DNA of 64,000 nucleotides from Carcharhinus longimanus (taxonomy: Eukaryota), in the NCBI GenBank assembly GCA_030264375.1, contig JASCQW010000162.1, forward strand, positions 96,002,558 through 96,066,557, written 5' to 3'. How positions within the stretch are numbered: position 1 is the first letter of the stretch; each line of letters begins with the position of its first letter. This document shows, piece by piece, positions 1,350 through 60,190 of the stretch. Below the pieces are notes generated by a model. It ran no database searches and was not told the origin of the DNA. It worked only from the letters and a program-made list of their open reading frames with translations. A program made the translations under genes and the position numbers.

Positions 1350-1465
1350 AGGAGAATTAGGCAGATTTTTGGTCTACAGGGGAATTAAGGAGAATGGGTT
1401 GGGTAGGTGCCGCAGGGTTAAGGCCACAGTGAGATCAGCCATGATCATACTGAATGATAGAGGAG
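1350..1465 (+). mobile_element. CR1 LINE 3' end fragment, old
   Basis: agatcagccatgatcatactgaatg matches the CR1 3' UTR also seen near 12170 and 16530. Confidence 0.6.
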
Positions 1466-1727
1466 TCACTGTCTCATGTGCCAGACTCTTGGCAGCTAAA
1501 TCTGGCAATCCCAAGTTCATTACTATGTTCTGTCAATACCTGTGTCATCCCAAGTATCACACTTAAAAGTGCAATATTTTAAAGTGGTCTTTACACTGCC
1601 TATTTAGCATACCATTTACCCAACTCTGATAATCCCTTAATTTTGAAAATAAGTTCTTCCTTCCTTCCACTTAAGAAAGTCAAATAGTACTGTTCATCAT
1701 TGTATAACTATCAAGCACTTGTTGCAC

Positions 1728-1830
1728 GCCATTGGCTGCTGTGTTTCTTTCACTACAACTGTGAACAAAACGTCAAAACTACTTCATGGTTGTAAAGCAT
1801 TTTCAGATGTCCTGCGGCATTGAAGCATGC
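1728..1830 (+). mobile_element. DeuSINE (SacSINE1/AmnSINE1-like) 3' fragment
   Basis: attggctgctgtgtttc...acttcatggttgtaaagcattt...gatgtcctg resembles the recalled DeuSINE tail and the copies at 27190 and 51080. Confidence 0.55.
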
Positions 1831-2049
1831 CTCAGTCTAACATCCAAAAGCACTCCCTAGACATTGGAGGCCTGGAATGACTGCTACCACTCTTTTCCAA
1901 ACCTTTCCTAATCCATTTCCACACTTTTTCAGCTAGGAAGTAAGGAAAAGGGCATGGAATAATATGAAGCCAAATCATACTTCCCAAACCCTCAATCTCT
2001 ACCACTTAATAATGCAAGGGCAGAAGACAGATGAGAACACAATTACCTC

Positions 2050-2290
2050 CATATTTGCTTCCAAGTCACACAATATCCTAAATTTGAATACTAAAATATT
2101 CTCTCATCATCATACAGTTAAATCCTCAAATTCCCTACCTAACAAGTATTGTGAGATCCCCTTCATCACATGGATCACAATGGTTTAAAAATACAGCTCA
2201 CCACCACTTCCTGCAATGCAATTACAGATGGACAATAAATGCTGTCTTTGCCAAAGGTGCTGTCGGATCCCCAGAATAAACGTAAATAAA
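2050..2290 (+). mobile_element. 3' end of CR1-group (Zenon-like) LINE
   Basis: cagctcaccaccacttc...caattacagatggacaataaatgctg tail, shared with 22840-23460 (-) and with the SINE at 25227. Confidence 0.65.
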
Positions 2291-4189
2291 TACTGGGCTG
2301 GCTTACAAACTTCCAAACAATTAGAGTAGCCATGGGACAGCTGCACAATCTCACCTTAAGGGGACATGGAAATTTATTTTCTAATTCCTTCAGTCAAAAG
2401 AATAAATACAATGTGCAAAGTTAAAAAGAAACACCAGCTACTATCCTCACACTAATGACAGCAACATGGAGACAGTGTGCAAATATCTATGACGATTTCT
2501 CGAACCGTTGCTGTCACAGAATGGCACAGCAAGCAAAACAACTGTGCATGTCCCACAGGATAATACAGGAGGAAACAGAGTATAATCTTAAAAAGCTGGG
2601 TGTAGATTTCATATCATTAATATTAGGCATCCATTTTTAAGAGAAGCAAATGTGTCTATGAGTGGAACAAATACTTTCCAAAGCATATGCATTTTTAAAG
2701 ATTTAGTAAAGCAATCCAAGTTGAACCAGATTGAATCTGCCAATATTTTTTTGAGACCACCAATGTTAACAATGTCTTACACGCCACCTTCAAGGGCAAA
2801 TCTCATGCACAACTAGACTTGCAGAATTCAGAGAGTACAAAAAGCTTTTGCTGAAGGTCACATTGTTCTGAAGTTGCAGCTTCTAATATTTACAGTGTTT
2901 ACACAGCAGCCAATATGAAGGTCTAATTTGATAATGCAAAACACTATAACTGCCATGAAATGTTTACACATAGCTCAATAAAACAAGCTGGGGTCCTACT
3001 GTAAATACAAATAGTGCCACTTAAGTATGGCTACAAAAGTATTACATTTTTAGAGGTACTTATTACTGTCACACAAAAATGAAAATAAAAACTCTGACAG
3101 CATAGATCAGAAGGTAAAGTGCACTTGCATAGCAGGAGCCTGAAAAACTGTGCTGGCCATGTTACTATTTCCATTAGCAAAAATAGTAGAACATACACTA
3201 CAACACTACAACCACAACTACCCATCCCTCCTCCGCTGTAAAACCGTAAGTATAACAAGAACTTGTCATTACCGAGGATAATGTTGCAATACGGACGGAG
3301 TTCCATTCTTCAAAATATATGAAAATATTTCATCTGAAGTAGCATACTGCTTTTAATTTCATAACATCACCTTCCCATGCCACAGACTTCCCCTCCCCTC
3401 ACCCCAAAGAGCTGGAACTCCATAATGCAATTCAATAGTCAAAATTTGCATTTCAGGCAAGATACGTTTTTAAGATACTTTTGGAAAGAATGAGAAATGT
3501 GCGTTTTGTTAACAGAAGAATCTGACCTCTGCTTTGCTCCACTAATTTCTGGCTGTGCCTCTGGCACAACAAAGGTCAGCACCATATGCACGCTGACTGC
3601 ATTGTTTCTGATTGCCATTCCCAACTCATAAATAGCTCTTCTAAAATGAATCAGCATTGGAACTCCATTTTTGTCAGGTAACAAAATTTCCAACTCTTTC
3701 TCCAATGGAACATTCAAAGTTTAAAGTTTACTCGTTAATTGATAGGAATGTAGATTTTAAATGCTATATAACATAGATAGTTTGCGTCATTACAGTTTGG
3801 GTGCTGTAAAATGATTCATTTCAGCTCTTTTAACAATAATGCAGTCGCACCCCACACACATGGGAAGATTTATGACATGTACAGGTTCTCGCTATTTTCA
3901 AATAAAATAGCTACAAAGGAATTTTATTAGGGACATGTACATAAGAGAGATTAAGGAGACCATTCATTGTCTTAGTGTTTCCTGTTATTAATGCAAGGAG
4001 TGCTCGGACATCCTGAGGCCCAGGCTGAGAGAGCAAGGTGTCCACTAAACCTACAATTGTCATGACAATGCAACAGTTTTGGGGGAACATCTATGGTTGA
4101 AGAATGTTCCAAATGATTAAAGCTATATTTACAATTGTTGGCATTCCCTCTTCCACACATACAACCTACTTATCTACAATCTTCTGAAG

Positions 4190-4885: not shown

Positions 4886-5454
4886 CCATGCATAAACCAA
4901 GGGAGCAAACTATGAAAATATAATTTATACTTTTTCAAGAAAAAAACATCTGGAGGGATATGCCCATACGTTGTTAAATAATACTCAAGATTTTCTGTTT
5001 TTACCCCAATTTACCCTTAAATTTTTCAGTTGCCTACAAAAGTAAAAGTTGAGGCAGGGAAATAAGAGAGAGAGAGAGAGATCTTCCATGTGAAAATCAG
5101 GGGAAATTACCACGTCATAAAATTCACAACAGGAACAAATATATGGAGTTATTTTTCCACTGACTCTGCAATTTAAATTTTCCAATCTGATTTTACTTAG
5201 AATGTTTTATTATTTTACTACTGTATAACCTTTTTTTTTGAAAGTTTATTATGTCCCTTGACATCAGAGAGGAAATCTAAAACCAGGCTCTCTGACATTC
5301 TCTGGGTGAAAGAGCCTGCTAGCAATCTATTCCAAATTTCTTTCTCCACAGCAGTTGCTTTGAATTAGTTTGAGTGGTTGATAGAGTACATCCGGACATA
5401 GTAAAGAAATAAGTCAAAATCAGGAGGAATGGAGGAACCTGGTTGCTAAACATT

Positions 5455-5738
5455 AAAGTTTCAAGTTTATTAGTGTCACAAGTAGGCTTATATTAACACT
5501 GTAATGTGAAAATCTCTTAGTCAATACATGCCAGTGTCTGTTCAGGTACACAGAGAAAATTTAGCATGGCCAATGCACCTAACCTTGGACTGTGGGAGGA
5601 AACTGGAGCATCTGGAGGAAACCCACGCAGACACAGGAAGAAGATGCAGACTCCGCACAGTCACCCAAGCCAGGAATTGAACCCAGGTCCCTGGTGCTGT
5701 GAGGCAGTAGTGCTAACCACTGTGCCACCGTGCCGCCC
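5455..5738 (-). mobile_element. tRNA-derived V-SINE (HE1-like head, non-CR1 tail)
   Basis: Reverse complement starts gggcggcacggtggcacagtggttagcactac with A and B boxes; tail cctacttgtgacactaataaac. Confidence 0.85.
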
Positions 5739-7254
5739 ACGAAGCATGAAGTAATTGAAGAGTTATCATTTTTGAAATTTAATTGGACTTATCATTTGGT
5801 AGCATACTTAAAGACACAAAGATAAACACAACAGGTCCCATCAGATGCTATCTCCAGGTAAAGCTCAAAGATGCACACAACCAAATCTTTATGTGCATGG
5901 AAAAAGCATGGGGATTGTTGAAAATTGAGGGGATTTGTAAATTTGCTTTTTTTTGTAAAATTTAGTCAAAATTAAATTAGGAATAATGTAAACTTCTGGA
6001 AATATTACTGCAAATTAGGAAGAGCTAAAAATGAAAAACAATATAGTCATTGCTCCAGCTACCTCTTGTTTTAAACCCTGGTACATCTTTGTATAAAGTT
6101 TACATCATCCTATTGTATAACACAAAACAAATGTAAGTGCATCACTGTGGATTACACAAAAATTGACCCACAGTCAGAGTTACTGAACTTGTAGTTAAAA
6201 TTAGCACTGAAGCTGTGTAGCAAAACTACCAACGTTCCTCATTTCACATGGCAATGAGGAAAAGTCAGGGGTGTGAGACAAGCCAAATTGCTCTTGCAGA
6301 AAGCCAACATGTCCTCAACTGCTCAAATGGTCTCCTTCTGTGCTGTAACTAGTTCTAAAATGATTCCAAGTGTTTTGTCCATTAAGTAATTTGAAAAAGT
6401 AAAATATTTCAGACAAATCACAACTCTGCCATAAACAGCATCAGATAACTTTCAGCTCTCCATGGTTGTTATACTCATTATAACAATAATTTCAAGGACT
6501 TTGCAGCGTCCAAATTACTTTTACTGACCCCACACTATTTCAGTTATGTTTTTATTACTTGCTCTAATAACACAGCAGTCTGCACTGATTCAAACTCAAA
6601 ATGTAACTTGAAACTTGAATTATTAACTGTTACACTGGTAACGTATAATATTTTTGAGTACCTGCAAAGGCTCAGCATTGTCATAATTTTCCTCTCACTA
6701 CCCCCACTGGTTTCTAATCTATCATCGTAATTAAGTTAATGCAAAACAATAAAAACAGCAGCAGAAAGCTAAGCAGAGCAAAGCGCAGTGTTTTGTTTCA
6801 ATTTTATATGATTTGACCTCCACTTGGTTTTAGCCTTTATAGTGAAGCAACTTGGACACACGAGCTCCAGTTGACATTAACCAGATGTTATCAACCTTTA
6901 CTGCCACTTCAACTGTTTCACAATACCATTTATGCCCCACTATTGGCAGAATACCAAAAGCCTTTTCAAAAGAAAAGGAGAGAAATATGTGTAAAGCAGA
7001 GACCCGAAGTAGGCACAAAACGGGCATACTCAAAAGAACCAGGACTGCAATATTAAAAGGAAAAAAGTAGAAACACGAACAATCAAGAAGCCAGCATGGA
7101 TAGCCATGGTTCCCTCAATGTTGTAGCTGTCCTGGAACAGCTTGGCTAAGGGCACGGCAAGTTCTGGAGCACAAGTCTTCAGGACTATTGCTGGATTATT
7201 GTCAAGGCCCATAGTCTTTCAGTATCCAGTGCCTTCAGCTGTTTGATATCATGC

Positions 7255-7374
7255 GGGCCCTGATTTTACTGGCACGGCAGCCCCGAAAATCCAGGCCCGC
7301 AGAATGGCATTCCCCATTAGCCTTGGGCATGATCTTAAGAACCTCAGGCAACTGTGCCGGTAAAATCAGAGCCT
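7255..7374. mobile_element. MITE with terminal inverted repeats, nested in LINE
   Basis: ggccctgattttactggcac ... gtgccggtaaaatcagagcc; the host LINE resumes on both sides. Confidence 0.7.
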
Positions 7375-7763
7375 TGGAGTGAACCAAACTGGCTGAAAAC
7401 TGACATTGTGAAACTTGGACTTCCTGAGGAAGCCATGATGGATCATCCACTTGGCTGAAGTTCATTGTGAATGCTTCAGCCTTATCTTTTGCACAGATGT
7501 GGAGTCCTCTTTCATTGAAGATAGGGCTATTCGTGGAGTCTTCTCCAGTGAATTGTTTATCTGTTCATTCACTATTCACGGCTGAATGTGGCAGGACTTC
7601 AGAACTTGGATCTCATCCTTTGGTTGTGGGATCGCTTAGCTCTATCAGTTGCTACCTATGCTGTTTGGCGCACAAGTATTCCTGTGTTGTAGCTTCAAAG
7701 GTTGTCATCTCATTTTTAATTATCCCCAGTATTACTTCTGGCATGCCCTCTTGCACTCTACAT

Positions 7764-8024
7764 TGATGTGGATGTGCTGGCGTTGGACTGGAGTAAACAC
7801 AGTAAGAAGTCTGACAACACCAGGTTTTAGTCCAACCGATTTATTTGATAGTAAACTCACAAGCTTTCGNNNNNNNNNNNNNNNNNNNNNNNNNNNNNNN
7901 NNNNNNNNNNNNNNNNNNNNNNNNNNNNNNNNNNNNNNNNNNNNNNNNNNNNNNNNNNNNNNNNNNNNNTTACTATCAAATAAATCGGTTGGACTAAAAC
8001 CTGGTGTTGTCAGACTTTTTACTG
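7764..8024 (-). mobile_element. Penelope-type palindromic element, centre lost in N gap
   Basis: Inverted arms flank the gap; same family as 36739-37056; near-duplicated target actctacattga (7755-7766) / actccacattga (8025-8036). Confidence 0.75.
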
Positions 8025-9432
8025 ACTCCACATTGAGCCAGGATTGATCCCTGAGCTTGGTGGTAATGGTCGAGTGGGAGATATGCCAGGCCATGAGATC
8101 AGAGATTGCGGTCAAGTACAATTCTGCTACTGCTGATGGCTCACAGTGCCTTATGGATGTCCAGCCTTGAGTTGCTAGATCTATTTGAAGTCTATCCTTC
8201 AGCATAGTAACCATGCCACACAACACAGTGGAGGATATCCTCAACGTGAAGACGGAATTTCACCTCCGCAAGACCTGTGTGGTGGTCACTCCTACCAATA
8301 CTGTCAGATGCATCTGTTGTAGGGGAGCTTGGTGAGGATGAGGTCAAGTATGTTTTTCCCTCTTGTTGGTTCTCTCAGCCCCTCCTGCAGTTCCAGTCTA
8401 GCAGCTATGTCCTTTAGTACCTGGCCAACTCAGTCTGTGGTGGTAGTACTGAGTCACTCTTAGTGATGGATGTTGAAGTCCTCTATCCAGAAAACATTCT
8501 GTGGCCTTGCCACTCTTAATATTTCCTTCAAGTGGTGTTCAATGCAGAGGAGTACTGATTCATCAGCTGAGGGGCACAGTATGTGGTAATCAGCAGGATG
8601 TTTCCTTGTCCATTTTTGATCTGGTGCCATGAAACTTCAGAGTCCAGAGTTGATCTTGAGGAATGCCAGTAAAAGTCCCTCCTGACTGTACACTAGGGTG
8701 CTGCCACCTCTGCTGGGTCTGTCCTAATGGTGGGGCAGAACACGCCCAGGAATGATGATGATGGTGTCTGGGACATTATCTGTAAGGTATGATTCCACGA
8801 GTATGACTGTGTCAGTCTGTTGTTTGACTAGTCTGTGAGATAGCTCTCCGAACTTTTACACCAGCCCTCAGATGTTAGTAAGGAAGACTTTGCAGGGTTG
8901 ACAGAGCTGGTTTGCCATAGTCATTTCCAGTGCCTAGGTTGGTGCCGTGTTGTCCATCCAGTTTCATTGCTTTGCGTTTTCTTCACAGTGGTTGGACACA
9001 ACAGAGTGGCTTGCTAGGCCATTTCAGAGGGCATGTAAGAGTCAATATATTACTGTGGATCAGAGTCGTGTGTAGGCAGGACCAAGCAAGGACAGCAGAT
9101 TTCCTTCCTTAAAGGACATTAATGAACCAAATGGGTTTCAGTGGCAAAGAGGAACAGTATAGAGTGGAAATGCTTGAAATAGCAAGGTAGCTTTTAAATT
9201 CTTAGAAAGCATTTTCATTAATCCAAAAACTGCATAAATGAGACAATCCAACACAGAGTTTTGCAGTGCTTCCTTCAACTGCCTGCAATTAGAAAGTATT
9301 GCAATAAGCATCAAATTGCTAACACCACCCGTGAATGCCACTTTATTCGTAACAAGAATAACAGCCAAACAATAATTGCTTGAAATAATGTCCCCTCCCC
9401 TTCATGAGGAGTCACGTAACTAGTAGGAAATG

Positions 9433-12240: not shown

Positions 12241-12574
12241 TGGGAAAGTTTTCACCAAATTAACTGATTCACATTTCGCAGCAAACTTCCATCATTTTTA
12301 GATCCAATGTCATAATCAGAAAATCAGTTTTCAAACTATCAATAGCTGTACTAACCAAAGAACTTCTGTGAAAAGGAACGTTGCTTGGCTGGGTTAGCAG
12401 ATATTGACACTCCTTGCACATGTGGTGAACAATAATCCAATGCTAGCTGTGTAGAAGAACTTGAAGGGAAGGGCAGCTCGTTTCATTATTTCATTAAGTA
12501 TGATGCAGTGACATCACTATAGGGCTGAGGTTAAGAGATCAGGGGCCACCAACCAGCAAACAGGCTGCTGATTT

Positions 12575-12765
12575 TTTTTTAATCTGTTCGTGGGACACGG
12601 ACATCATTGGCAGGCCAGCATTTATTGTCTGTCCATAGTTGCCCTTACAGTATGGCTTGCTAGGCCATTTCAGAGGGCAGCTGAGAGTCAACCACATTGG
12701 TGTGGATCTGGGGTCACGTGTAGGCCAGACCAGGTAAAGACGGCAGATTTCCTTGGATATTAGGA
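12575..12765 (-). mobile_element. 3' half of the tRNA-SINE that shares ends with the Zenon-like LINE
   Basis: Reverse complement matches about 25425-25570. Confidence 0.75.
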
Positions 12766-12775
12766 AGATCCTTCA

Positions 12776-13055
12776 CAGCACGGTGGCACAGTGGTTAGCA
12801 CTGCTGTCTCACAGCACCAAGGACCTAGGTTTGATTCCCGCTGGGGTCACTGTCTGTGTGGAGTTTGCACATTCTCCCTGCGTCTGTGTGGGTTTCCTCC
12901 CACAATCCAAAGATGTGCAGGTTAGGTGCATTGGCCATGCTAAATTCTGCTTCAGCGTACCCGGACAGACACTGGAGTTTGGTGACCAGAGGATTTTCAC
13001 CGTAACTTCATTACAGTGTGAATGTAAGCCTACTTGTGACTAATAAATAAACTTT
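12776..13055 (+). mobile_element. V-SINE (HE1-like head, non-CR1 tail)
   Basis: cacggtggcacagtggttagcactgctg... ends gcctacttgtgactaataaataaacttt. Confidence 0.88.
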
Positions 13056-15029
13056 ACTTCTAAAATATAATGAAGAATCTCAGGTGGTCAGGTCTGTGTA
13101 CATGCTATATTGTTAAGCACTAAAAGCATGAGTTAACAAGGTGGCTTTGAATTTCTTCACCGAAAAATACGTGGAGCTACTACCCAATATACATCAGTGC
13201 AATAGGCCACAGTTCCCATATTCGTGCAAAAACTTTTAAACTGCATAGCGTATTTATATTTTTATAAATACATCAGAAAGAAAAGCAGATAAACTTGCCG
13301 CACAGATAAAAATTTAAAAAGATAACCTGAAAAAGAAACAGGACACCTTGGCATTATGAACACTGGAAATTGTAAAAGAAGAGAAACCGTATCCTGCTCA
13401 TTAATGTTTGGTGAATATCTCATATATGATCAATGGCATGATTTTTATTTGCTGCATGGGAGACTGTGTTTACTCAGGAATTAAATGAAGCTCAGGTTTC
13501 TGCTTCTGCCAATCAACAATTATTTACACAATTATATATGGTGAAAGCATCTGGTTTCAAGTCTTTGAAATGGGTCAGACCCAATTTGTACCACCCACCC
13601 AGCCCCATCCCATCCCTGATTTTATGATTCCTTGCCTTTATCTGAGTGTAAAATAAGTGTTTGACTAAAACCAGCATTTTCAAGGTAAAACAGGGGACAC
13701 CCTTTGAGTAGCACTGATACCAGTATGCCTATCTGTTTTTCCAAGAGCAACAGCAGGCCAGATCGTTAAAATGAAACAAGTTTGACTACATTTTGTGGGA
13801 TTTAATCAAATGTTCTTTTCATTGTTGACAGCCTATTCCTTTGGTAAGTAGGCCTTGCAATTTGTTCCAAAATATGAAGGTTAGAAATAGCAATAATTAG
13901 CATCTTCATCATCATCTTGACAGCCAAATGTTCGCATTTAAAGTAGATTTACGATATATATGCACTAATAGTTTGCCACAACATTAGGTCCATGACCCAC
14001 TGTACAAATTGCATTATACTTGGGTGTAGGACAGATCCTAGAAGTAACTGATGACGTACTCAGCAGTTGGTTCATACTAAAATAGTACAGCTATGAATAT
14101 AGAGACTAGTTTAATCAGCAAGTTTTTAAACTTGTTCCCCTCCTATTCCTGTTTCTCTAAGAATGTACAACTCATGTCCCATATTTCTGCCTAAATGATT
14201 AGGTCCATGAGTTTATTGAAGGTATTGTCTAAATCAGCACTGGTTTAATATTTGTTGTAATGAAACAGGTAACTCCTGACTCTTTTAATATTATTAGTTT
14301 TAATTTCAAAGTGTATACGCTGATCTCCAGCCACACGGCGTTCCAAACCCTGGGTGCTGCACTTTGTTACCCTCTCTGGTCAGGAACAGAACTGCAACAG
14401 ACATCACAAACCTGTGTCCAAATCCCAAAATATCCATGAACAATGTCAAGTGAGATCAACCAGTTAATCAAAATGTATTTCATACAAACTTTCAACATTA
14501 AAGCCAAAATTGGTTGGGGAACAATGCAATCAAGGGAAAGACACAGTTGTGGATCAAAATTATTTCTATTATTGGTTCTTGTTTTAGCTATGAGTCTAAT
14601 TCTGCTGTAACATCACTGCTTTCTGTATTGACATTAGCACAGGGTCAAATTAAAATTTGATGCAAAAAACAGGTAGCAGTTTGTGTGTGATTTGCTGATT
14701 AAGCATTAATTTTGAATCACTGTTACATATCAGTAAAATAATAGTTTTATTTTAGATAGCTATCGTCATCACTAACTAACATGAAAAATGGATACATGAC
14801 AGGCAAAACTTGCGAATATTTTTAGATTCTATTTCTCATATTTTGGGTGTTTTATCAGCGTTATCAAATAAAACTGCCTGTTCAGGGAGCATCAACATTT
14901 TAAATCAATTTAAAGTTGGGAAATTTTAACTTTGGCACTAAAACACTATGATAATTTCACGTCATTCACTTGTTATTGACCTTAAGAAGTTGACTGACCA
15001 GTGACTTAAATGAGCGAGGCGTATAAGAC

Positions 15030-22839: not shown

Positions 22840-23462
22840 GAACTTCATTCATGGGATTTGGGCATTGCTGACGAGGCTAGTATTTACTGCTCATCCCTAA
22901 TTGCCTTTCAGAAGGTGGTGGTGAGCTATTGTCTTGAACTGCTGCAGTCCATGTGGTGTAGGTACATCACTGTGGTATTAAGGAGGGAGTTCCAGAATGT
23001 TGACCCAGTGACAGTGAAGGAATGGCAACATGTTTCAAAGTCAAGATGCTGAGTGACTTGGAGGGGAATTTCCCATTTGGTGTGCTATCCTTGTCCTTCC
23101 AGATGGCAGCGGTTATGGGTTTGGACAGTGCTGCCTAAGGTGCCTTGGTGAGTTCCAGCAGTGCATTTTGTAAATGGTACAATGGCTGCCACTGTTCATC
23201 GGAGATGGACAGAGTGAGTGTTTTCTGAAGGGGTGCGAACCAAGTGGACTGCTTTGTCCTGGATGGCAGGTTACACTCATCCAGGCAAGGAGAAAGTATT
23301 TCACCTCACTTGTGCCTTGTAGATTTCTGGAAATGCTTTAGGAAGTCAGGAGGAGAGTTATTTGTTGCAGCAGTCCTTGCCTCTGACCTGCTTTTGCGGC
23401 AATAATATTTATATGGCTTGTCTAGTTCTGTTTCTGGTCAATAGAAACACCCAGGATGTTGA
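22840..23462 (-). mobile_element. Zenon-like LINE 3' end
   Basis: Tail matches 2120-2290 in reverse; MKYFLLAWMS and FTVTGSTFWNSL motifs on the minus strand. Confidence 0.75.
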
Positions 23463-25226: not shown

Positions 25227-25572
25227 GGGAGGCAATGGCATAATGATATTGTCTCTGGCCTAGTACTCCAGAGACCCAGGACACTGCCTGGGTTCGAATC
25301 ACAATACGGCAGATGGTGAAATTTGAATTTAATAAAAAAATCAGAAATTTAAAAAGTCTAATGATGACTATGAAACTATTGTTGTTTGTCAGAAAAAACC
25401 ATCTGGTTTGCCAACGTCCTTTAGGGAAGGAAATCTGCCATCTTTACCTGGTCTGGCCTATATGTGACTCCAAATTCACAACAGTGTGGTTGGCTTTTAA
25501 ATGCCCTCTAAGGGCAATTAGTGATGGGCAATAAATGCTCATTCAGCCAGCAACACCCACATCCCACAATTT
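25227..25572 (+). mobile_element. tRNA-derived SINE with Zenon-like LINE 5' body and 3' tail
   Basis: A box tggcataatga (25236), B box gggttcgaatc (25290), body ggaaatctgcc...gtgactcca, tail aagggcaattagtgatgggcaataaatgct. Confidence 0.85.
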
Positions 25573-27189
25573 AGAAAATGACCCCCAATTTATATTATTT
25601 GATTACCAACTCTGCTGTCGTCAGATAATTCATCAAAGTAAGGTGCAACTACTCATCAGAAAAGACACCAACAGTGGCATTTCTTTTTTAAAAAATTACA
25701 AATGAATTTGAAGATCATAATTCATAATTTTAATGTCATTTTATCTAGGTAATGTCAAAACTTAGTCTTCACTTTAAGATACATAATAATTATTTGAATT
25801 AAAAATTCATGTTATTTTCCCAGCTTTTAATGAGTATTATGTTATTAGCATCAGAAACATCAATACTGTGAACCTGCAGCAGCCATAACAACAACCAAAA
25901 ATATCTCATTCAAACGGAGATTTCGAGCAGTGCGGATCTTCCATGATCGGAAAATATATAGTTATTTCAAGCTGTAACAGTCAAAGGCTCCACGGCAGAT
26001 TTTCTCTTTCTCTGTCAATGGCATAGGGTTGCTATGACCTGTAAATAGCAATAGTAAATTAAATATTTCTTTTCAAGTATTTTCCAGAATATGAGGATAC
26101 ACTTTGATTTAAAACACTAAACGACACATTTAATATGAAGAACATCCTAAAATATATTGTAATCATTTCTTGTTGTTCATAAATTTTAAAGAAAACGTTT
26201 TCTTGAAAGAAGTTTAGAAAGGGTAAAAAGTAAATAAATACATACATTATTGAAACTTGCTACTCAAGTTTTATTGCAGATTGGTTTCAAACAAAAAAAA
26301 GACTTTCATCGGCTTTATAGAGTTAATTACTGCCATGTTTGTCCATACAGTCACTCAAGCATTTGAAAACCACTTCTAGAGCATTGAACCATGATAGCCA
26401 ATAACCTGTATAAACCAGTGATGAAGCATCAGCTTGCCCCACCTCTATCCCACCCCTTTCCCAGAATCAGCCTTTTGCTTAGTGCAGAACAGAATCCCAC
26501 AACTGTATTCAGTTTAGCAGTAACTAAAAATCTCTTAACAATCTATAACAGCACTTAATTTTACAGGATATTCAAACTTAACATTTCTTCAATTTCACTT
26601 TGAAACATTTCTAAATTTATCACAGGTGATAAAAAATTATTTGAATTGAAATTTTATAAGAACGTCAATATAATTTCACCTATTGTCAATTTACTCAATA
26701 GTTCGCATGTTTGAACAGCCTATTATACAAATGATCTTTATTTTTAATTTCAACACTCACTGCTAAAGCAGATGTAGCCGTTTCATGACAAAAATTTTGA
26801 CTAAAATGATTTTTGGTTTTAAAATGGCGTTACGTACACTGAAGCATACCACGGTGTCACTTGCCAGAGATATCACTGTGACAAAAATAATGCACAACCT
26901 TTCTCCCTGAATAAAAATAAGTTAACCATGCACAATTTCACCAGCAGAACTTCCTGACACATAAAATGCCAATCTAACCCTAAAAGTATCTCATTCATTT
27001 AGAAAAAGGCAAAAATATGCAACTAGGCCTTTAGTCTAAAAATCGCTACATCCTTACAGTTTTATTATTTTGACACCTGTCAATCCATTTTTCTTTAATT
27101 TGAACTCTTATTCCATAAAACAATATAAAAGCAGAGCTTCTGGGAATTTATAGCTTTGCAACATCATAACAACTTTGAATAAAAAAATG

Positions 27190-27790: not shown

Positions 27791-30595
27791 TGTGGAAGGA
27801 CTGGGTTCCCAATAACTAATGAACAAGGTCTTATAACAACAACAATTAAGAACTCTGAGCAGCTCTTACATGTTTCCAGTCTGCCCATGTTCTGGGGAAT
27901 TTGACCCAGGTGTGCTTGGAGAACATTCACCTTGTTGATGAGTCTCAGCATAAGGAGTGCAGTAGAGTAAACTGTAATCTCTAGAACATGCTTGGCTGAG
28001 CACACCGCCTATTCTGCAAGGCCATTGGGTACTGGGGGCTATGTGTGACATGCTCAAAGTCTCATGTGTGTTCAAAGTTCCTGAACTCACTGGAGGAATC
28101 CATCATCATCCTCTGAAGAATGTGGCAAAGTATCTCTTGAGCTTGGCAGATAGTCAAGTTCAAACCACCTGGAACGCAAGGCTAAAACCAAATGTTATTT
28201 ACTATTCCATTCGAAGATGTCAGCTGCTGTAAGGGACCTCATGTAGGGTGGACCTGGTTCTTTGGCTTGATGTGGCTCGAGTGCATTGCATGGTGCATAT
28301 CTGGATACGTGCTTCTCCATGCCTGCATACTTGGAGGCCCAGTATAATGATTCCTTTGCCCTCTATTCGGGTGCCCTTGGAGAGTTGCTGGTATAAAACT
28401 TTTGGAGAGGGAGACGAGGATGACAAATTGCTGGGCATGTAGTATCAGTCTGTCCTGTACAGGTAAGTCATCTTTGATGGTGAAGAATGCGCAGAGCTCA
28501 TGGAAAATCATCCTCATCTGGATATAACGAGTCTCAGCATCAGTGAGGGCACCTGATGAAAAGAGCCATTCTGAATGTAAACTGCACAAAATCCACGCTG
28601 GAAAGCTTCTGCTGATAGGAACAAAGGCATGCAAATGTCAAAGTATTGTAGCACCAAGTGAGGCTGTGTGATGCTCCTGTCAACACCATTCGACATCTTG
28701 GTAGAGGAGCTGACAAAGAGATCCAGTGACTTTAAAGAACTTAAAGATAATTTGTCATACCAAGGAAACACTGCAAAGTGTACTTGTCCACAAGAATGGC
28801 CATCTGTCATATAGTCATTTTCTTGTCTGGATCTGGTTTCACACCATCCGCTGTGAGTATGTGGCCCACATAGGGAACCCGGCTGACCCTAAATCTGCAT
28901 TTAGCAGGGTTAAGCTTGAACTGTGTGGTCCTAATTCTATCCAAGATGAGACAAAGACAGCAGCATTGGCGGCACAGTAGTTGGCACTGTTGCTTCACAG
29001 AGTCAGGGACCCAGGTTCGATTCCCAGTTTGGGCCATAGTCTCCGTGTCAATGTGGGTTTCCTCTGGGTGTTCCGATTTCATCCCACAGTCCAAAAGATG
29101 TGCTGGTTTAGGTGCATTGGCTATGCTAAATTCTCCCTCAGTGTACCCGAACAGGTGCCAGAGTGTGTGGTGACTAAGGAATTTTTACAGTAACATTACA
29201 GTGTTAATGTAAGCCTACTTCTGACTAATAAATACATTTTTTACTGTATTAAAGACGTGCATCATTTTCTTACATTATACAAACTCACAGCAGGGTATCA
29301 TTGGTGATGATCTCACAGGGTTGGGCTGCAAATAGTTGCTTGTGCATTGTTGGAAAAGCTCGATGCCGTTGGAGATGCAGATGAAATGGTATCTGCCTAC
29401 TGCAGACATGAATGTAGTGAGATTTAAGGATCCTTCTTCAAGCCAAATGTGCCAGAACCCACATTTCACACCCTGGATGCTGAAAATCTTCCATTGGGCA
29501 AGTTAGCTATGGCCTATTTAATCGTCTTTACCATCTGAGCAGTGCCTTCGAATGGACTGGGTTGATACAAATCTTGACCACATCATCTTAATTTACTACA
29601 GCCAGTATTGCTGAATTCCAGTCCGTAGCCTCACCTTTGGCAGTTATGACATCTAGTATCATCATCCAGTGCAACTTATTAACTAATTCCTGCTTCTTGG
29701 CTAAGGGTACTCTTCTCAGAGTACAGAGTGATGGTGGCTTAGATCTGCAGCTTTTGGTAAAATGCTTCAATTTGCCATGTTCATTGCAGCATTTACCAAA
29801 CATTCAGTTCTGAAGTTGGTGCAGGATATGCCCTGCACCAGGAAAACTTCTGTTTACTGCCTTAACCCTTTGCTTTTTATTTCTAACTGCACGTTTAACA
29901 TGCAAATGAAAATGCCTGATTGCAATGTTAATTCTTTCATTTGAAAATCTGCGTGCAGACAAGATTACTGTGGATCCCTTCAGACTGCAATCCCTGCATA
30001 ATCCATTAGTAAGGGTGCTAAAAGCACATTATTTTGCAAAGATTTTTAAAAATTGCAGCATAGGGCTGTATCAATTCACCAGATCTTTGGTTTGCACTGC
30101 TAAACACACGCTTATGTAGTATTATATTCCTCACTGGCAAGCACATGTTCTCATACTTTCTTAAACATTATCTGTTTAAGAAAGGGTCTTCTTTTTCCTC
30201 CTACATTTGGAAAACAAAAGACACAAATTTCTAAACAATCTTAAGGCCCACTAAGTTTAGTAAATTGTATGCCTGTACCTTTTTGCATTTATCCGATAAA
30301 CCAGCACTGCATTGCGTGTGCCACTCTTCTTCAAACTTTGCCCAGCTGCCCACAAAATTTTCATTGAACACAAGCAGATCGTTGCAGCAAAGTCCCTGTG
30401 CGATACAGCCAACTCCTGCCACAAGGTAGAACTACTGGGTTTCAATGACTGGCAACCAAGGACTTATAACAACAAGTTTATTAAGTACTCCGAGCAGCTG
30501 TAACATGCTTCCATCTGCCCGCGCTCCAAACACGTCATCACATGACTAAGTGGTCAATAATCCTAGAAACTGATTACGGTAATGCAGGCTTCACA
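27791..30595 (-). mobile_element. Decayed Gypsy LTR retrotransposon (Mag-clade-like) with internal deletions
   Basis: Direct repeats at 27791-27895 and about 30424-30530; PBS-like ttgtggcaggagt; gag WAKFEEEW..AGLSDKCKKVQAY; degenerate CCHC knuckle FGKCCNEHGKLKHFTKSC; RT GFWHIWL..TTF..GRY and KLNPAKCRFRVSRVPYVGHILTADGVKPDPDK. Confidence 0.88.
28956..29240 (+). mobile_element. V-SINE nested in the Gypsy RT
   Basis: Same family as 12776-13055; B box ggttcgattcc. Confidence 0.85.
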
Positions 30596-35139: not shown

Positions 35140-35970
35140 TGCTTTGTTTATTTTTCTTTTTGTTAGAATTTTTTATTCCATTCTTAAAGTTACAAACCCA
35201 ATGTTTAGAGTGGACAAGGCAAACCAAAGTCCATTTCTTACTTGCTCCAAATTCAAACTGAATCCAGTTCATGGTCTTCACAAGAGAGACAAACAAGATC
35301 CAAGCTGACACAACAATTAGGGCAGCACGGTGGCACAGTGGTTAGCACTGCCGCCTTACAGCACCAGGGACCTGGATTTGATTCCAGGCTTGGGTGACTG
35401 TACGAAGTCTGCACGTTCTCCCTGCGTCTTGTGGGTTTCCCCCAGGTGCTCTGGTTTTCTCCCACAATCCAAAAGACATGCATTGGCCATATTAAATTCT
35501 TCTGCAGTGTACCTGAACAGCCACCGATATCTGACGACTAGGGAATTTTCACAGTAATTTCATTGCAGTGTTAATGTAAGCCTATTTGAGACAAATAAAC
35601 AAACTTTAAGGCACTGTATACCATTTGGTTTTGATCTGACACCTGATCATAGCCGAAAGGCTGAGAGTTGCTGCTATTTTTTTAAAAAATTATCCAATCA
35701 AAAACCAAATTGTTCCAATCAAAGTCTCTACAAGAGAGACATTACAGGTCAAGCTGACAAAACAGGGCCCATTCTTCCAGTCTTGGGCTCGATCAACAAG
35801 ATTCAAACTGATTGGAGCAGGCATTACACCCCCTCCACTGCTTGATGGGAGCTTCATCTTAGCCAAAAGGCCTAGATGGCATTTTAAAAAATTGCTTCAA
35901 ATGAAGCCTCAGTGTAACCTCAGTGACTTCTATCAAGTATAAGATCAGCAAACTACACTTGATCTTAGCA
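35140..35970 (-). mobile_element. Composite element with three U2-snRNA 5' heads (SINEU-like), interrupted by a V-SINE
   Basis: U2 matches at 35952-35969, 35856-35872 and 35639-35667; two units share the body cagctt..tgtctctcttgt; AATAAA and A-rich end at about 35140-35177. Confidence 0.7.
35320..35607 (+). mobile_element. V-SINE nested in the U2-headed element
   Basis: gggcagcacggtggcacagtggttagc...gtgttaatgtaagcct...aataaac. Confidence 0.88.
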
Positions 35971-36738
35971 GCACTTTTTGGTCTTTTTGCTATGTTGTGC
36001 CATTAAGTGCCCCACATTAAAAACCACTTCTAGATTGACTCCCAGAACCTGTCCCACAATACACTACCCCCTTCAGAGGTTAGATTGGCTTTAAGAATTG
36101 AAAGCTACGTTTAGCTCATGCTGTTTTTTTTCCCTGATCAGGTGTTTAGCTTTTCAACTCCCCAGTTAACACTGATTACAAGCTGAGATAATTTAAATTA
36201 GCAGGCACCACTAAATTTGCATTGTGCCTGCATTGGGAGCAATGTGGGTGCAGTAATCCTGCTTCATGATCCCTGCACCCTTTTCCAGACTCTGCCCAAT
36301 TTTGCCACTAAATCTCTAAAGAGCAAAGCATACTTCTCTCAATCTGTATAATCACTAACAAACTGGCTATCTCTGCACTAGAGGGTGCTATATTTTAAAA
36401 TTCATAATGAAGTGTCAGTGTCACCTTTGTTTCACCTTCAGCAAAATAGAATGTCTGATTTGGGAAACAGTAGCAAATGTAGTAATGTTACTGGATTAAT
36501 CCAGAGGCCTGGACTAATGCTTCATAGATGCAAATTCAAATCCCATCACCTGAGAAATTTAAATTCAATAAATAATTCTGAAATAAACAGCTTGTATCAG
36601 CAATGACAATCATAACATTACCACACTGTCATTAAAATAAATCTAGTTCGCAAGCTTCCTTCAGATAAGGAAATCTGCTACCGTTACCTAGTGCAGCCTG
36701 CATGTGACTCCAAACTCTCAGCCTTGTGGTTGATCCTT

Positions 36739-37056
36739 GTAAGAAGTCTCACAACACCAGGTTAAAAATCCAACAGATTTATTTGGTAGCAAAAGCCACT
36801 AGCTTTCAGGGCGCTGCTCCTTCATCTGGTAAGTGGGATTTCTGTTCACAAACAGGGCATATAAAGTCACAAACTCAAATTGAGTGCATGTCTTTATGTG
36901 CCCTGTTTGTGAACAGAACTCCCAGTTACCTGATGAAGGGGCAGCGCTCCGAAAGCTAATGGCTTTTGCTACCAAATAAATCTGTTGGACTTTAACCTGG
37001 TGTTCTGCGAATTCTTACTGTGTTTACCCCAGTCCAACGCTGGCATCTCCACATCA
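36739..37056 (+). mobile_element. Penelope-type palindromic element with 12-bp TSD
   Basis: Arms 36739-36878 / 36880-37018, unpaired tail to 37056; TSD tggttgatcctt at 36727-36738 and 37057-37068. Confidence 0.88.
36922..36964 (+). ncRNA. Minimal hammerhead-ribozyme-like motif
   Basis: CTGATGA (36930-36936), A, stem GGGGC/GCTCC with AGC loop, GAAA, palindromic AGCT; stem I is weak in this copy. Confidence 0.6.
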
Positions 37057-37507
37057 TGGTTGATCCTTAACCAGCCTCTGAAATGGCCTATCAAACCATT
37101 CTGTTGTATCAAGTCACTACAGGAAAATTGAAGAAGAATAAAACCAGACACACTTCCCGGCATCAGCACAGCACGAGAAGGAAAAACAGTGCACTCTTCC
37201 AAACTGACTTTGCAAGTCTTCCTTACTAAGATCTGGGAACTGGTGCCAAAATTTGGATAGCTGTACCTCAGGTGGGAGGTACAGCCTTGGAAGAAGCACT
37301 GAGTGTAGCAAGTGTACAGATGCTATCTGGGTGGGGGCTTTAATGTCCATGACCTTCAGCCAGTTCAGACTCCTGAGCCAATAAGTCCTAAAGAAAATAT
37401 CTGCCAAAGTGGGCCTCTGGCAGAGGGTGAGAGAACCAATTAAACTTAATGATCCTTACTGTCAATAAACTGTAATATATGCATCCATCCATGACAGTAT
37501 AGGTAGG

Positions 37508-37761
37508 TATAATGATGGCCACAGGAGATAGTTGATGGATCTTCTAGCAGGCCTCACAGGATATGAACTCCCCTGTTAGACAAGTGGAGGCTCGTGCAAT
37601 AGGGAAGGAGGAAGGAATCAGCTGGCTCCATTTAGGTTGGCACTCGAAAGACTTGGAGCTGATCTGTACTTTGTACATTGTGTTCTGAATGCTGTTCAGC
37701 AGCTACAATGTAAATAAAGGGTAGTTGGTGAGAAAAGACTGGCTTCGATAAGATTATTACA
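37508..37761 (+). mobile_element. Solo LTR
   Basis: Termini tataat...attaca, AATAAA near 37713, flanked by gtagg / gtaga; the host LINE is continuous across it. Confidence 0.65.
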
Positions 37762-38929
37762 GTAGAAGTGACCAGTACAACATCCTTGTGGAGATGAGTT
37801 CCACCTACACACTGAGGACATGTGTGTTGTGTAGCACTACCATCATGCTTGATGCAGCAGATTCAGAATAGATCTATGAAATGCGACAGTTCAAAGAGCA
37901 GAATTGTATTTTATCACATTCTGTAACCTCATGGGCCACAACATCACTTATTCTAACATAACTACAAAGCCAGAGACCACACTTGGTTCAATGAGGAACG
38001 CTGGACTACATGCCAGGCGCACCATCGGCATACCTAAAAATGAGGTGTCAGCCGATGAAACTATAACACAGGATGACACGAATGTAAAACAGCAAAAGCA
38101 GCATGCTACAAAGCAGGGCCAAGCAATTACACACCAATCAGATCAATATGATTCAGTGTTTGTATTTCAGATGTTGAACTGGATATTTCAAAAGTCGATT
38201 CTAATCTGAAATAATAGGCCTAATTATAACTGTTTAAAAGACTGGGTTTTCAGCAAGTTAAAAATTGGACTCAACAGATTTAATTTTGAAGCCAAAAGAT
38301 TGATCACCAAAATTTGATTAATTCAAACAGCAAAAGTCAAATGATTGAAACTCAACTCTGCTGGCCAACGCGTTTTGCATATTGCTGGAAGATAAGAAAA
38401 AATGCACCAAGATTGACTAATCAAACTTCAAGTATGTCCTGATAAGGTATTAAGAGGCAACACTGTGACATGACAGGGAATGGCAAAGCAATGAGTCCCC
38501 ATACACTAAGCTATTAATCCGAATAACTCTATTGCGGGCAGAATGCAGGACTGGTACTTCCATACATGGAGGGAGGAAGATTGAAAAAAATAGAGTGCAT
38601 CCTAGCTGAAAGTTGGTAAGCACTAAAGGAGGTCTTTGTAATACTGTCAACGAGTAGTTTTGAGATTGTCACTTCATAAAACATTTATTGCTTGTGTTTG
38701 ACAATATCTGAAACTACTATTATGGATACATCTGACCTAACTTCTGTTTCAGTACATGCATTAATAGGCACATTGGTAAAGATCACGTGATTATTGAACA
38801 GTTCCACAAGCCAAGTTTAATACTGAAGAGCAAATATTTTCCATTACACATGCTAAAAAAGCACCAGGGTAAACTTCCTCAGAATAGGTTACTGTAGATA
38901 GAAGTCTAGAAACAGGTCTGTTGAACGGC

Positions 38930-41310: not shown

Positions 41311-41799
41311 TGGCAATGCTCTCAGTCTTGAGGAACAAAATGACAGCTTGAAAGTTCAAGCAAAAATTTCAAATATTTCCAGATTTTTAATCAATTGGTG
41401 ATTTCAGAGTTCAGATGTACTCCAAGCTAAGAGGTAGCAACCAATTAAGGCCCATTATCATTGTCACATTCAGAGGAACTAATTTCAAAAAACAGGCCAT
41501 TCAAAAGACATTTGAATGTTTAACATAGTCAAGAGCCTAACTTCCATTTTAAAATTGCCTGCGATGCCTAAAACTTAAGAGCGGATCTAATGCCTGTGCC
41601 GAGGGCTGCAGGTCACTCACTGTCAAATCAGTTTTGCATACAATTGTGTTGTGTCCAAAAGTAAATACAACACATATAGGATTCAATGAAAAGTGCAGGG
41701 GGACACCAAGCATCTGTAAAAATTAGGTGTCAACCTAGAGAATCTACAACAGTGGACTACTTGTGTGCTAATCAGTATAAGCAGCATATGACAGACAAA

Positions 41800-42756
41800 A
41801 TGAAGTGATCCCATTACCAACAAATAAGATCTAAGCACTGCAGTCTTGCCACATCCAGTTGTGGATGTGTCCGACAATTAAACCACTCACTAGAGAAGAA
41901 GGCTCCACAACTATCCCATCCTCAATGGTGGGAGAGCCTGGCACATCAGTGAAAAAGATAAGGCTGAAGCATTTACAGGAAGTGTCAAATGGATGATCCA
42001 TTTCAATCTCCTACTCCAGACTAGGTCCCCAGCATCACAGATGCCAGTCTTCAGCCAATTTGATTAGTTCCATGTGATATCAACAAATGGTGAAAGTACT
42101 GGATACTGCAAAGGCTATGGGCCCTAACAACATTCTAGCAATAATACCCAAGACTTGTGCTCAGAACTTGCTGCTCCTCTAGCCAAGCTGTTCTAGTGCA
42201 GCTACAACACTGGCACCTACCCAGTAATATGGAATTTGCCCAGGTAATATCATGTACACAAAAAGAAAAATCCAACCCAGTCAATTACTGCCCCATCACT
42301 CCACTGTCAGTAAAGTGATAAATGGGGTCATCAACAGTGCCATCCAGTGGCACTTACTTAGCAATAATCTGCTGTCTGATACTTGGTTTGGATTCTGCCA
42401 AGGTAATTCAACTCCTCATCTCATTGTTGCCTTGGCTCAAACACAGACAAAAGAGCTAAACTGAGTGTGACTGCCCTTGACATCAAGGCAGCATTTGACG
42501 GAGCATGGCAGCAAGAAACCTAGTAAAATTGAAGTCATTGAGAAGCAGAAGGGAGCTTCCCCACTGACTGAAGTCATACCGGCACAAGTATGATGATTGT
42601 AACCGTTGGAGGTCAATCATCTCACAGTTCCAGGCCATTCCTGCAGCAGCCTTTCAGGATGGTAGCCTAGACTGAACCATATTCAGCTCCTTCATCAATG
42701 ACATTCCTTCCATTATAAGATCAGAAGTGGAGATGTTCACTGATGACTGCAAAATG
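41800..42756 (+). mobile_element. Zenon-like LINE RT fragment
   Basis: AMGPNNI, ELAAPLAKLF, TALDIKAAFD, FINDI and EMFTDD motifs. Confidence 0.85.
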
Positions 42757-47698: not shown

Positions 47699-48021
47699 TC
47701 ATAGAATCATAAAAACTCTACAGTGCAGAAGGACACCATTCGGGCCATCGAGTCTGCACTGACAACAATCCCATCCCAGGTGCTAACCCCACAAATTTAT
47801 TCCACTAATCTGTCTAACCTACACATCCTGGGACACTAAGGGACAATTTAGCTTGGCAGTCAACCTAACCTGCACATCATTGGACTGTGGGAGGAAACTG
47901 GAGCACCCGGAGGAAACCCATGCAGACACAAGGAGAATGTGCAAACTCAACACAGCGACCCAACCGGGGAATCGAGCCCGGGTCCCTAGAGCTGAGAGGC
48001 AGCAATGTTAAGCACGGCGCC
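47699..48021 (-). mobile_element. HE1-type V-SINE with CR1 tail
   Basis: V-SINE head and body; tail (reverse complement) gcagactcgatggcccgaatggtgtccttctgcactgtag..tatgattctatg. Confidence 0.85.
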
Positions 48022-49741
48022 AATTATCCTGTGTAAAATGACAAACTGAGTTGTAGGCCATTTGTTAGGGCAAGAATACACTTGGTTATCTGTCAGGTCT
48101 GATTCTCCCAAGGTGACTAAAAGGTCCTTAAAAGGTGGACATGAGCACAAAAGGTTGAGGCATCACGGCAATTACGGTGGAGATAGACCACTCCAATTTC
48201 TCTCCAAGGGTGCATATAGCTTCCTGAAATTCTAACAGATCCAGATGTATTTCCCATTGCTGATGCAGAAGTCTGCTCTTTAATATTGATCCTCAAGGCT
48301 ATGCATCTACCTGCAGCTGAGCAGAGTTTAGTGTGTCCTGTGGCTTCTAATCGAGACCCTTCACTGCTGTCCCTTCTCTAGCAGCTGCTCAAATGTGACA
48401 TGCGGTCACTGACTGACATTCTAGCTATCTCTGATAGAGTCTCCAATAAAGTGTGCGTTGGCACAATGCTGCTGGCCTCAAACCCAACCCCCCCCCACCT
48501 CACATGTCCCACAACAAACTGATCTATTTCAGTAAAATTCCACCCTGCCTGTCTCAATGAGAATTTTTCAGTTTTATTGATTGAGGAACCATGGTGTGTC
48601 TTGGCTTGTTTTCAGATGCCCTGTAGAGGGTGCTGCACTAGAATCAGATGCCAGAGCAAAGCAGATCTGTACTCGAAAGCTGAGAAAACTGTATGCAGCC
48701 ATCAGCAAGGTGAATTGCAGTGTGTCACTCATTTGCCTGAAATGAAAAGTCTACACAATTCTATGATGCAAGACAAAAACACTTACATCTATCACCTGCA
48801 TTTATGGGGAAGCTAGATAAATATGCAAGGGGGAGAGAGAGAGAGATAGCAAGATGGATATGTTGAGAGCTGACTCATGTGGAGCATGAATACCAGGATG
48901 AACTGTTGGATCGAAGACTGGAAAGTAAATACTTGTAATACTAAGCATTAAGTAAGCACCATCCTGAAGATATGACTTTCACACAAATGATGTCTTAAAA
49001 CTGAATAACTTTCTTTTGAAGGAATGTTGATCAGCATTTTATTATTTTAAATCATGATAATCACATCAATTCTAGTCTTGGCTCCTGTTCAGACTATTAA
49101 ACAGAATTTTTCTTTCTTTAATCTTTGTGTATTATCTAGTTAATTGCTTTATCAAGTGGCCATGACAGTTCCCCATCAGAAAATATTACCGGTATGAAAT
49201 TGGCTTCCCATGTTCAAAGGGCATAACAAAAATTTTTTAAAAACTTAAGTTGCTGAATATTTAAAAAAAAACAAAGCATCGCTTTCCAAACAAACTTGTT
49301 TGCACAATGGTTGTAAAAACAACCCATTTAAAAAAACAATGTTCCCCAAAATAGTCCAAATCCCAAAAACTCTCTGGCTGGTAACCTTCTCCTGCTAAAA
49401 ACAAACTCCAACAAGGAACGTTTTGCACAAGGAAAGATCTTTGCTGCATCATTATTTCTAAGTTTCTCAAGTCCTTGAAAAATAAGCTTCGAGAAGTGGA
49501 TTTAGATTTTGTTAAATCCAAGGTCATGACTTGTAAATGATGCCTGACAACACCCATTACTGCACAAGCAATTCATTTTTATTGCCGAAGTTTATGTCAG
49601 CAAAGGAAAGCCAGATACTTTAATTATGCGGAATATTTCCCACTAGTTCAGCATATTCTCAGCAGGGAAAGATTCCTCTAAGATTTCATGATGTATTACA
49701 CAGACCTGTCATAAACAGGTGAATAGCTTTACCTTTGGGGT

Positions 49742-59576: not shown

Positions 59577-60190
59577 GGGGAGATGCTGGCGTAGAATCAT
59601 ACACAGTGCAGAAGGAAGCCATTCAGCCCATCGAGCCTATACCGACAATAATTCCACTCAGGCCCTATCCCCGTAACCCCACATATTTACTCTGCTAATC
59701 CCCTGACACAAGGGTCAATTTAGCATGGCCAATCAACCTAACCTGCACATTTTTGGACTGTGGGAATAAACCGGAGCACCCAGAGGAAACTCACACAGAC
59801 ATGGGGAGAATGTGCAAACTCCACACAGTCACCCAAGGCTGTAATTGAACCCAGGTCCCTAGTGGTGATGTCACTGGACTAACAATCCCGAGGCCCAGAT
59901 GAATGTTTTGGGGACATGGTTCCAAATCCTACCATGACAGATGATGGAACTTAAGTTCAATTCATAAATACAAATGATACATATATATATTAAATATAAA
60001 GCTTGTCTCAATAATAGTGACACTGAAACTATCAGGTAAGGAATTCTGTCATCCTTACCCAGTCTGGACTGCATGTAATTCCCCACCTACATTGATTCTT
60101 AATTCCATTATGAAATGGCCAAGCAAGCCACATATTGCAACAAATGTGGACTTTGACAGTGACGCCTACACCCCATGAAAGAAAAAGAAT
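59577..60190 (+). mobile_element. tRNA-SINE of the 25227 family, with HE1 inserted in its A box
   Basis: ggggagatgctggcgtag | tagtggtgatgtcactggact...ggttccaaatcc...gcctacaccccatgaaag. Confidence 0.75.
59592..59860 (-). mobile_element. HE1-type V-SINE with CR1 tail, 5'-truncated
   Basis: Same family as 47699-48021. Confidence 0.85.

Follow-up and report, generated by a model that had tools for sequence, protein, structure and literature searches.

A tRNA-headed Zenon retrotransposon of sharks and rays, likely transcribed by RNA polymerase III and probably shedding SINEs by internal deletion

We have analyzed a 64-kb stretch of the genome of Carcharhinus longimanus (contig JASCQW010000162.1; hereafter the window), which carries at positions 36462-38145 the decayed 5' part of a long interspersed element (LINE) of the Zenon family, a poly(A)-tailed retrotransposon of 3.3 kb with just one open reading frame (ORF). 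The main consensus of the family, built from 50 loci, is 3280 nt long and consists of a tRNA-like head reaching to about nt 95, an AT-rich spacer, a body ending at about nt 330, the ORF, a 3' untranslated region of ~55 nt and poly(A). Its features suggest that Zenon of sharks and rays is a tRNA-headed coding LINE which RNA polymerase III (Pol III) likely transcribes and which sheds short interspersed elements (SINEs) by deletion. We give about even chances to the fuller proposal, in which this coding retrotransposon would have been transcribed by Pol III since before the split of sharks and rays, with terminators purged from its 2.8-kb frame, AUG-less translation of an uncapped RNA and SINEs arising by deletion alone.

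The tRNA head is the 5' end of the LINE family and not of a single copy. To limit bias, the genome was searched three times with the endonuclease sequence alone (consensus nt 443-837), which returned 90 loci corresponding to 66 distinct copies, three of them being the query loci. The copies start in the tRNA head, at nt 1-20, in 38/66 cases and exactly at nt 1 in 21/66, which bears out the preliminary description of this DNA in its proposal that the coding LINE itself was headed by a tRNA; the junction of head and ORF is found well beyond a single copy, and it is not the case that most LINEs start at the body. Once eight copies marked for a gap or the end of a contig are set aside, the 58 informative ones start at nt 1-20 (n = 36), 58-84 (n = 2), 120-242 (n = 8), 253-266 (n = 5) or 283-479 (n = 7). 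No other 5' end is shared among the 66 copies, the remainder being scattered 5' truncations or gaps, and upstream of nt 1 the copies have no sequence in common. A query taken from behind the body retrieved 30 loci, many of which present head, body and endonuclease, and 7 of 32 long loci extend from the head through poly(A). The small cluster of starts at nt 253-266 (L040, L045, L049, L055 and L271) coincides with a short hairpin whose loop reads GCAA, and could reflect a pause of the reverse transcriptase (RT) or a cleavage site. Separately, the full-length copy L061 (G000:C27:91612500-91619300) shows an internal tandem duplication of ~600 bp in its RT region.

Among 36 distinct tRNAs of the genome, the best match of the family head is tRNA-Thr (z 7.2-7.5), a parentage that is provisional given that several isotypes are missing from the comparison set. 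Relative to tRNA-Thr, the head has an insertion of 19 nt between the A and B boxes, which we assign on the presumed consensus of such boxes. The first source of the head may have been a tRNA or an older SINE. Rfam returned nothing for head or body, whether those of the window or those of a single well-preserved copy, and no known family of ribozymes or internal ribosome entry sites was recognized there. Head, body and tail folded into hairpins in predictions made with neither a shuffle control nor covariation, and we claim no structure for them.

The coding strand of the consensus is poor in runs of T, the termination signal of Pol III, which in humans comprises T4 as well as degenerate T-rich sequences (PMC3141230). 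A scan for such terminators, which the preliminary description had recommended, found no T4 run as compared with 14 of A4, nine of G4 and 11 of C4, and five T3 runs as compared with 53 for A, 38 for G and 45 for C. The control consisted of synonymous shuffles that kept codon usage within a frame of 930 codons. The ORF contains three TTT runs where 12.2 are found in the shuffles (0/2000 shuffles as low), and no window with four T in five positions where 11.1 are expected (0/500 shuffles as low), the other bases being normal. The choice between synonymous T and C is 3:39 (3/42) where T would make TTT and 197:253 (197/450) elsewhere (Fisher p 7e-7). In contrast, the corresponding ratios in two CR1 consensuses from the same genome are 27:13 vs 130:48 and 29:15 vs 92:50, with no bias in TTT context, and these controls hold seven and five T4 runs, respectively. 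This signature is indirect: clusters of T have been selected against in the master RNA, and we infer that the cause is Pol III termination.

In the consensus, a frame running from stop to stop over 974 codons (nt 294-3215) combines endonuclease and RT in a single ORF. In genomic copies, Pfam recognizes its domains Exo_endo_phos, Exo_endo_phos_2 and RVT_1. There is no ORF1, as had been described earlier: the endonuclease is preceded by 425 nt, in which the longest frame started by ATG has 36 codons. The only in-frame ATGs within the first 900 nt lie at nt 96, followed by a stop after 16 codons, and at nt 837, inside the endonuclease, so that no usable in-frame ATG was found upstream of the endonuclease in the consensus. 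From an ATG at nt 349, a different frame runs for 36 codons across the start of the endonuclease. The distance from the upstream stop to this ATG varies from 25 to 29 nt across the published consensuses in the supplement of PMC13343379 (counted by eye), and therefore coding likely begins after nt 345. Comparison by eye also showed hardly any change in the body (nt ~170-320) between sharks and a stingray, next to a variable head, making the body a candidate signal for translation or packaging.

The SINE that accompanies this LINE combines nt 1-290 of the LINE with its final 75 nt, other breakpoints being rarer; this supports the earlier suggestion that it arose from the LINE by internal deletion. 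The arrangement of nt 1 to ~290 followed by ~3206 to the end was found in 30/30 junction matches and in 19/29 head-only matches, while the remaining head-only matches comprised two with a longer 5' part, one with another deletion and seven without a tail in the locus. Mapping of the breakpoints, which had also been recommended, placed the main junction (nt ~290 / ~3206) on a 3-nt match, with several variants, and showed that the 3' part of the SINE begins inside the last codons of the LINE. Among 63 SINE tails, the 5' part ends at nt 285-297 in 53 and at nt 310-329 in six (one with doubtful alignment), and one short copy has a 3' part that starts from nt 3164. SINE and LINE consensus differ at 9/290 positions, four of which are non-CpG, and the four diagnostic bases of the SINE occur together in 6/36 headed LINE copies. 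Moreover, old heads go with the old tail base in 3/3 cases and young heads with the young tail base in 36/44, the age of the tail being read from one diagnostic column. Since breakpoints vary, the SINE bases lie within a subset of LINEs, and heads and tails age together, the simplest account is that the SINE is likely a deletion product of successive LINE masters. A comparison of the SINE body with the domains of the HCD superfamilies (CORE, V, Deu and Meta) by means of five short motifs gave no match in the files of the MetaSINE supplement that were searched.

The element is placed in Zenon, within the CR1 group, on account of its 5' identity with published Zenon consensuses and of the phylogenetic tree presented in PMC13343379, and the label given in the preliminary description holds. 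That study includes seven elasmobranch consensuses of Zenon, obtained from four sharks and a single ray, namely RhiTyp_Zenon-1, CarCar_Zenon-1, ScyCan_Zenon-1, HypSab_Zenon-1 and SquAca_Zenon-1 to -3. All seven begin with head and body (by eye, in their first 400 nt), RhiTyp_Zenon-1 presenting about six differences from our family in the first 113 nt (by eye), whereas the head was not seen in the first 400 nt of two hagfish and one coelacanth Zenon of the same supplement (by eye). The elasmobranch consensuses numbered -1 are 3244-3314 nt long, as compared with 3280 nt here, and likewise lack ORF1 and possess poly(A). PMC13343379 describes Zenons as devoid of ORF1, with poly(A) tails, and vertebrate Zenons as not monophyletic; its main text contains no occurrence of the terms tRNA, promoter, Pol III, polymerase III or start codon, and the head, the avoidance of T runs, the missing AUG and the derived SINE are undescribed in the parts of that paper compared here. 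Target site duplications are not among the Zenon features named in those parts, and we found none for either element in copies that are ~8-10% diverged, the longest shared flank word being 4.7 vs 4.5 in mismatched pairs for seven LINEs and 4.5 vs 4.7 for SINEs (n = 36). Our own tree of 20 RTs, none of them a labelled Zenon, separates the element from two CR1 families and groups it with three unnamed proteins (support 98/97); RT identity is 34-36% with the two CR1 families of the same genome and 41-49% with the grouped proteins. The closest full-length protein of this group has its Met start 115 residues upstream of its endonuclease. In addition, the annotated shark/ray proteins P0013, P0017 and P0003 (anoctamin-7-like, cystathionine beta-synthase-like) contain ~120-140 RT residues with 57-83% identity, and these segments are candidates for exonised copies or gene-model errors.

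Partial parallels to this system are known. Lepidopteran Zenon also has a single ORF and ~3.3 kb, and repeated internal deletion has produced short elements combining its 5' and 3' ends (PMC6740152). However, its moth derivative Persaeus is described in that source as lacking both homology to tRNA and a promoter for Pol III, thus being a SIDE, unlike the deletion product found here, which has a tRNA head and is SINE-like. The bipartite SINEs of RTE and Vingi resemble ours in having body and tail from the 5' and 3' ends of a LINE, but the model presented in PMC5786205 has the head joining a deleted LINE without head, whereas here the coding LINE itself is headed; the bipartite elements covered in that text belong to RTE, Ingi, Vingi and R2 only. 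The same text attributes tRNA-like sequence to RTE-1_DAn and relatives in a single sentence, without position or claim for a promoter. The shark elements SacSINE1 and CmiSINEs are tRNA-headed as well, but combine a Deu or CORE body with an L2 tail in place of Zenon ends (PMC5499810, compared by description). Beyond the sentence on RTE-1_DAn, we found no tRNA-headed or Pol III-driven coding LINE in the literature searched, Repbase, Dfam and most subscription journals lying outside that search. What is already published is the Zenon family with its sequence, the absence of ORF1 and the existence of deletion derivatives; what is new here is the proposed promoter and the putative mechanism of translation of Zenon.

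We propose the following cycle. TFIIIC would bind the A and B boxes of the head and Pol III would start at nt 1, reading through 3.3 kb thanks to the removal of terminators. Translation of the uncapped RNA would then proceed without a normal start, the conserved body possibly serving as entry site, or alternatively from the out-of-frame AUG at nt 349 followed by a -1 shift. The resulting protein would attach to poly(A) and to a hairpin predicted at the 3' end, and the copy would be inserted by target-primed reverse transcription. An internal deletion that retains promoter and tail would yield a working SINE at once, which fits with the SINE outnumbering the LINE.

Several observations weigh against this proposal. 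LINEs are generally considered to use Pol II (PMC5786205, PMC10886601), while both the Pol III transcription of the family and its AUG-less translation are predicted from sequence. Taken by itself, the lack of TTTT does not reach significance (p 0.05-0.08), the signal coming from TTT runs and 4-of-5 windows, and the avoidance of T runs could be due to something else. The consensus built from older copies is 92.6% identical to the main one and likewise has no T4, but it was seeded with the younger consensus, so that the two are interdependent. The AUG at nt 349 is ATA in the older-copy consensus and is missing in one of the seven published consensuses in the supplement of PMC13343379. The 66 copies used for the counts of 5' ends are top-scoring matches tilted to younger ones, and no random sample. 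ARAGORN finds no tRNA in the window, and neither ARAGORN nor Rfam calls the head a tRNA. Finally, conservation among copies is 0.90 for the A box and 0.84 for the B box vs 0.92 for the body, although copies decay neutrally and this measure is uninformative.

The strongest alternative accepts the head as part of the family and assigns the coding RNA to Pol II, acting from a promoter in the body or by read-through, so that the head would be a relic or function in the SINE only, and the avoidance of T would serve RNA stability or processing. The common view of LINEs as Pol II units, expressed in the discussion of PMC5786205, is in line with this, as are the near invariance of the body from sharks to ray next to a variable head, the easier translation that a capped RNA would allow, and the five informative copies out of 58 starting inside the body. 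Yet the replicating RNA includes the head, because 21 copies start precisely at its first nucleotide; the depletion affects T specifically, extends to interrupted runs, varies with codon context and is seen in neither of the CR1 controls; and a capped RNA would find no in-frame AUG. We regard this alternative as rather unlikely.

A second alternative reverses the direction: through template switching, the LINE would have received the 5' part of an independent and older SINE (with head, body and Zenon tail), and ends would have been swapped between them since. The lack of the head in the first 400 nt of the non-elasmobranch Zenons of PMC13343379 implies that it was acquired, a SINE being a plausible donor, and a published model builds SINEs by template switching (PMC5786205); moreover, the dominance of one junction (53/63 tails) in copies with old as well as young heads is what a single old origin predicts. 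Against this, other short copies retain more LINE sequence (5' part reaching nt 310-324 and, in one case, 3' part beginning at nt 3164), which implies more than one deletion event, the SINE haplotype falls within one LINE subfamily with both ends tracking LINE age, and the 3' part of the SINE starts inside the last codons, on a 3-nt match. This scenario, which we consider improbable, would in any case leave the Pol III signature standing. The notion that a SINE was by chance inserted beside a LINE fragment in the 36462 copy only, which might be entertained for so decayed a copy in a window where the second copy (7105-9138) has no head, is refuted by the order of head, body and ORF in 38 of the 66 copies and in all the published elasmobranch consensuses.

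Returning to the copy at 36462-38145, its succession of head, body and endonuclease is as first described. The decayed head, with A box, 19-nt variable-region insertion and B box, occupies 36462-36560 on the forward strand, and the match to the consensus sets in from nt 17-37 on; region 36462-36600, aligned with the head of the SINE at 25227 and with that at 59860, scores 59 and 65, the maxima among 100 shuffles per comparison being 28 and 32. It is followed by the AT-rich spacer and the first part of the conserved body (36561-36738, consensus nt ~100-280), the end of the body and the leader preceding the endonuclease (37057-37210, nt 269-425), the start and second half of the endonuclease with nt ~488-790 deleted (37211-37505), and the end of the endonuclease with the linker (37745-38145, nt 1017-1452), all on the forward strand. 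Identical residues amount to 170/237 aligned positions in 36495-36738 (nt 37-280), 156/207 in 37057-37271 (nt 269-487), 162/215 in 37286-37505 (nt 791-1035) and 287/397 in 37745-38145, so that, apart from a palindromic insert, the element retains 72-75% identity to the family consensus over aligned positions from the head to nt 1452. The continuation of ~1 kb into the endonuclease reported initially is coding sequence indeed, but it is interrupted by the deletion of ~300 nt and by an unrelated stretch of ~240 bp without consensus match (37506-37744), and ends in the linker, with neither RT nor tail. This copy is likely an old insertion, because it scores 380 against the older-copy consensus (to which it contributed) vs 296 against the younger one, and the dogfish consensus is, by eye, the one that its head resembles most.

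The palindromic insert (36739-37056, 318 bp) is a later insertion that splits the body and is flanked by a 12-bp duplication (36727-36738 and 37057-37068); its stretch 36739-37018 matches itself in inverted orientation with 87.5% identity, and a motif resembling a hammerhead core lies at 36930. The same element of ~300 bp is present again at 7765-8024, inside the LINE copy at 7105-9138. Rfam gave no match for it in the window, and it is likely a Penelope-derived miniature element.

The other relatives in the window include three deletion SINEs. The one at 25227-25578 (+) joins consensus nt 2-291 to nt 3207-end and that at 59577-60190 (+) extends to nt 324, joined near nt 3225; both have the two-end structure of the LINE that had been recognized before, but the latter differs in its breakpoint and is interrupted by a minus-strand SINE inserted within its head (~59594-59857). 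A 5'-truncated SINE lies at 12572-12754 (-; nt 209-310 and 3207-3280). The LINE copy of the minus strand previously delimited at 7105-9138 aligns from 7116 to 9138 with nt 177-1848, including insertions and an assembly gap; it does carry the body upstream of its endonuclease, but starts at nt ~168-177 and, being without the head, provides no evidence on it. Further LINE fragments are found at 41704-42756 (+; linker and RT, nt 1329-2402), 22844-23462 (-; 3' fragment, nt 2608-3270) and 1984-2244 (+; 3' fragment, nt 2976-3237). A second abundant SINE family, presumably HE1/V-SINE-like, is represented at 59594-59857 (-), 5453-5738, 12776-13056, 28939-29240, 35298-35609 and 47720-48022. A weak match to U2 snRNA at 35709-35882 (-; E 0.92) probably corresponds to a decayed pseudogene.

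Transcripts of Pol III are taken to be short and non-coding. If the present proposal is true, a natural coding transcript of 3.3 kb made by Pol III would end the division between LINEs as Pol II units and Pol III products as short non-coding RNAs, and the Zenon family of sharks and rays would reveal both a route of translation for uncapped RNA and a path leading from LINE to SINE in one step.
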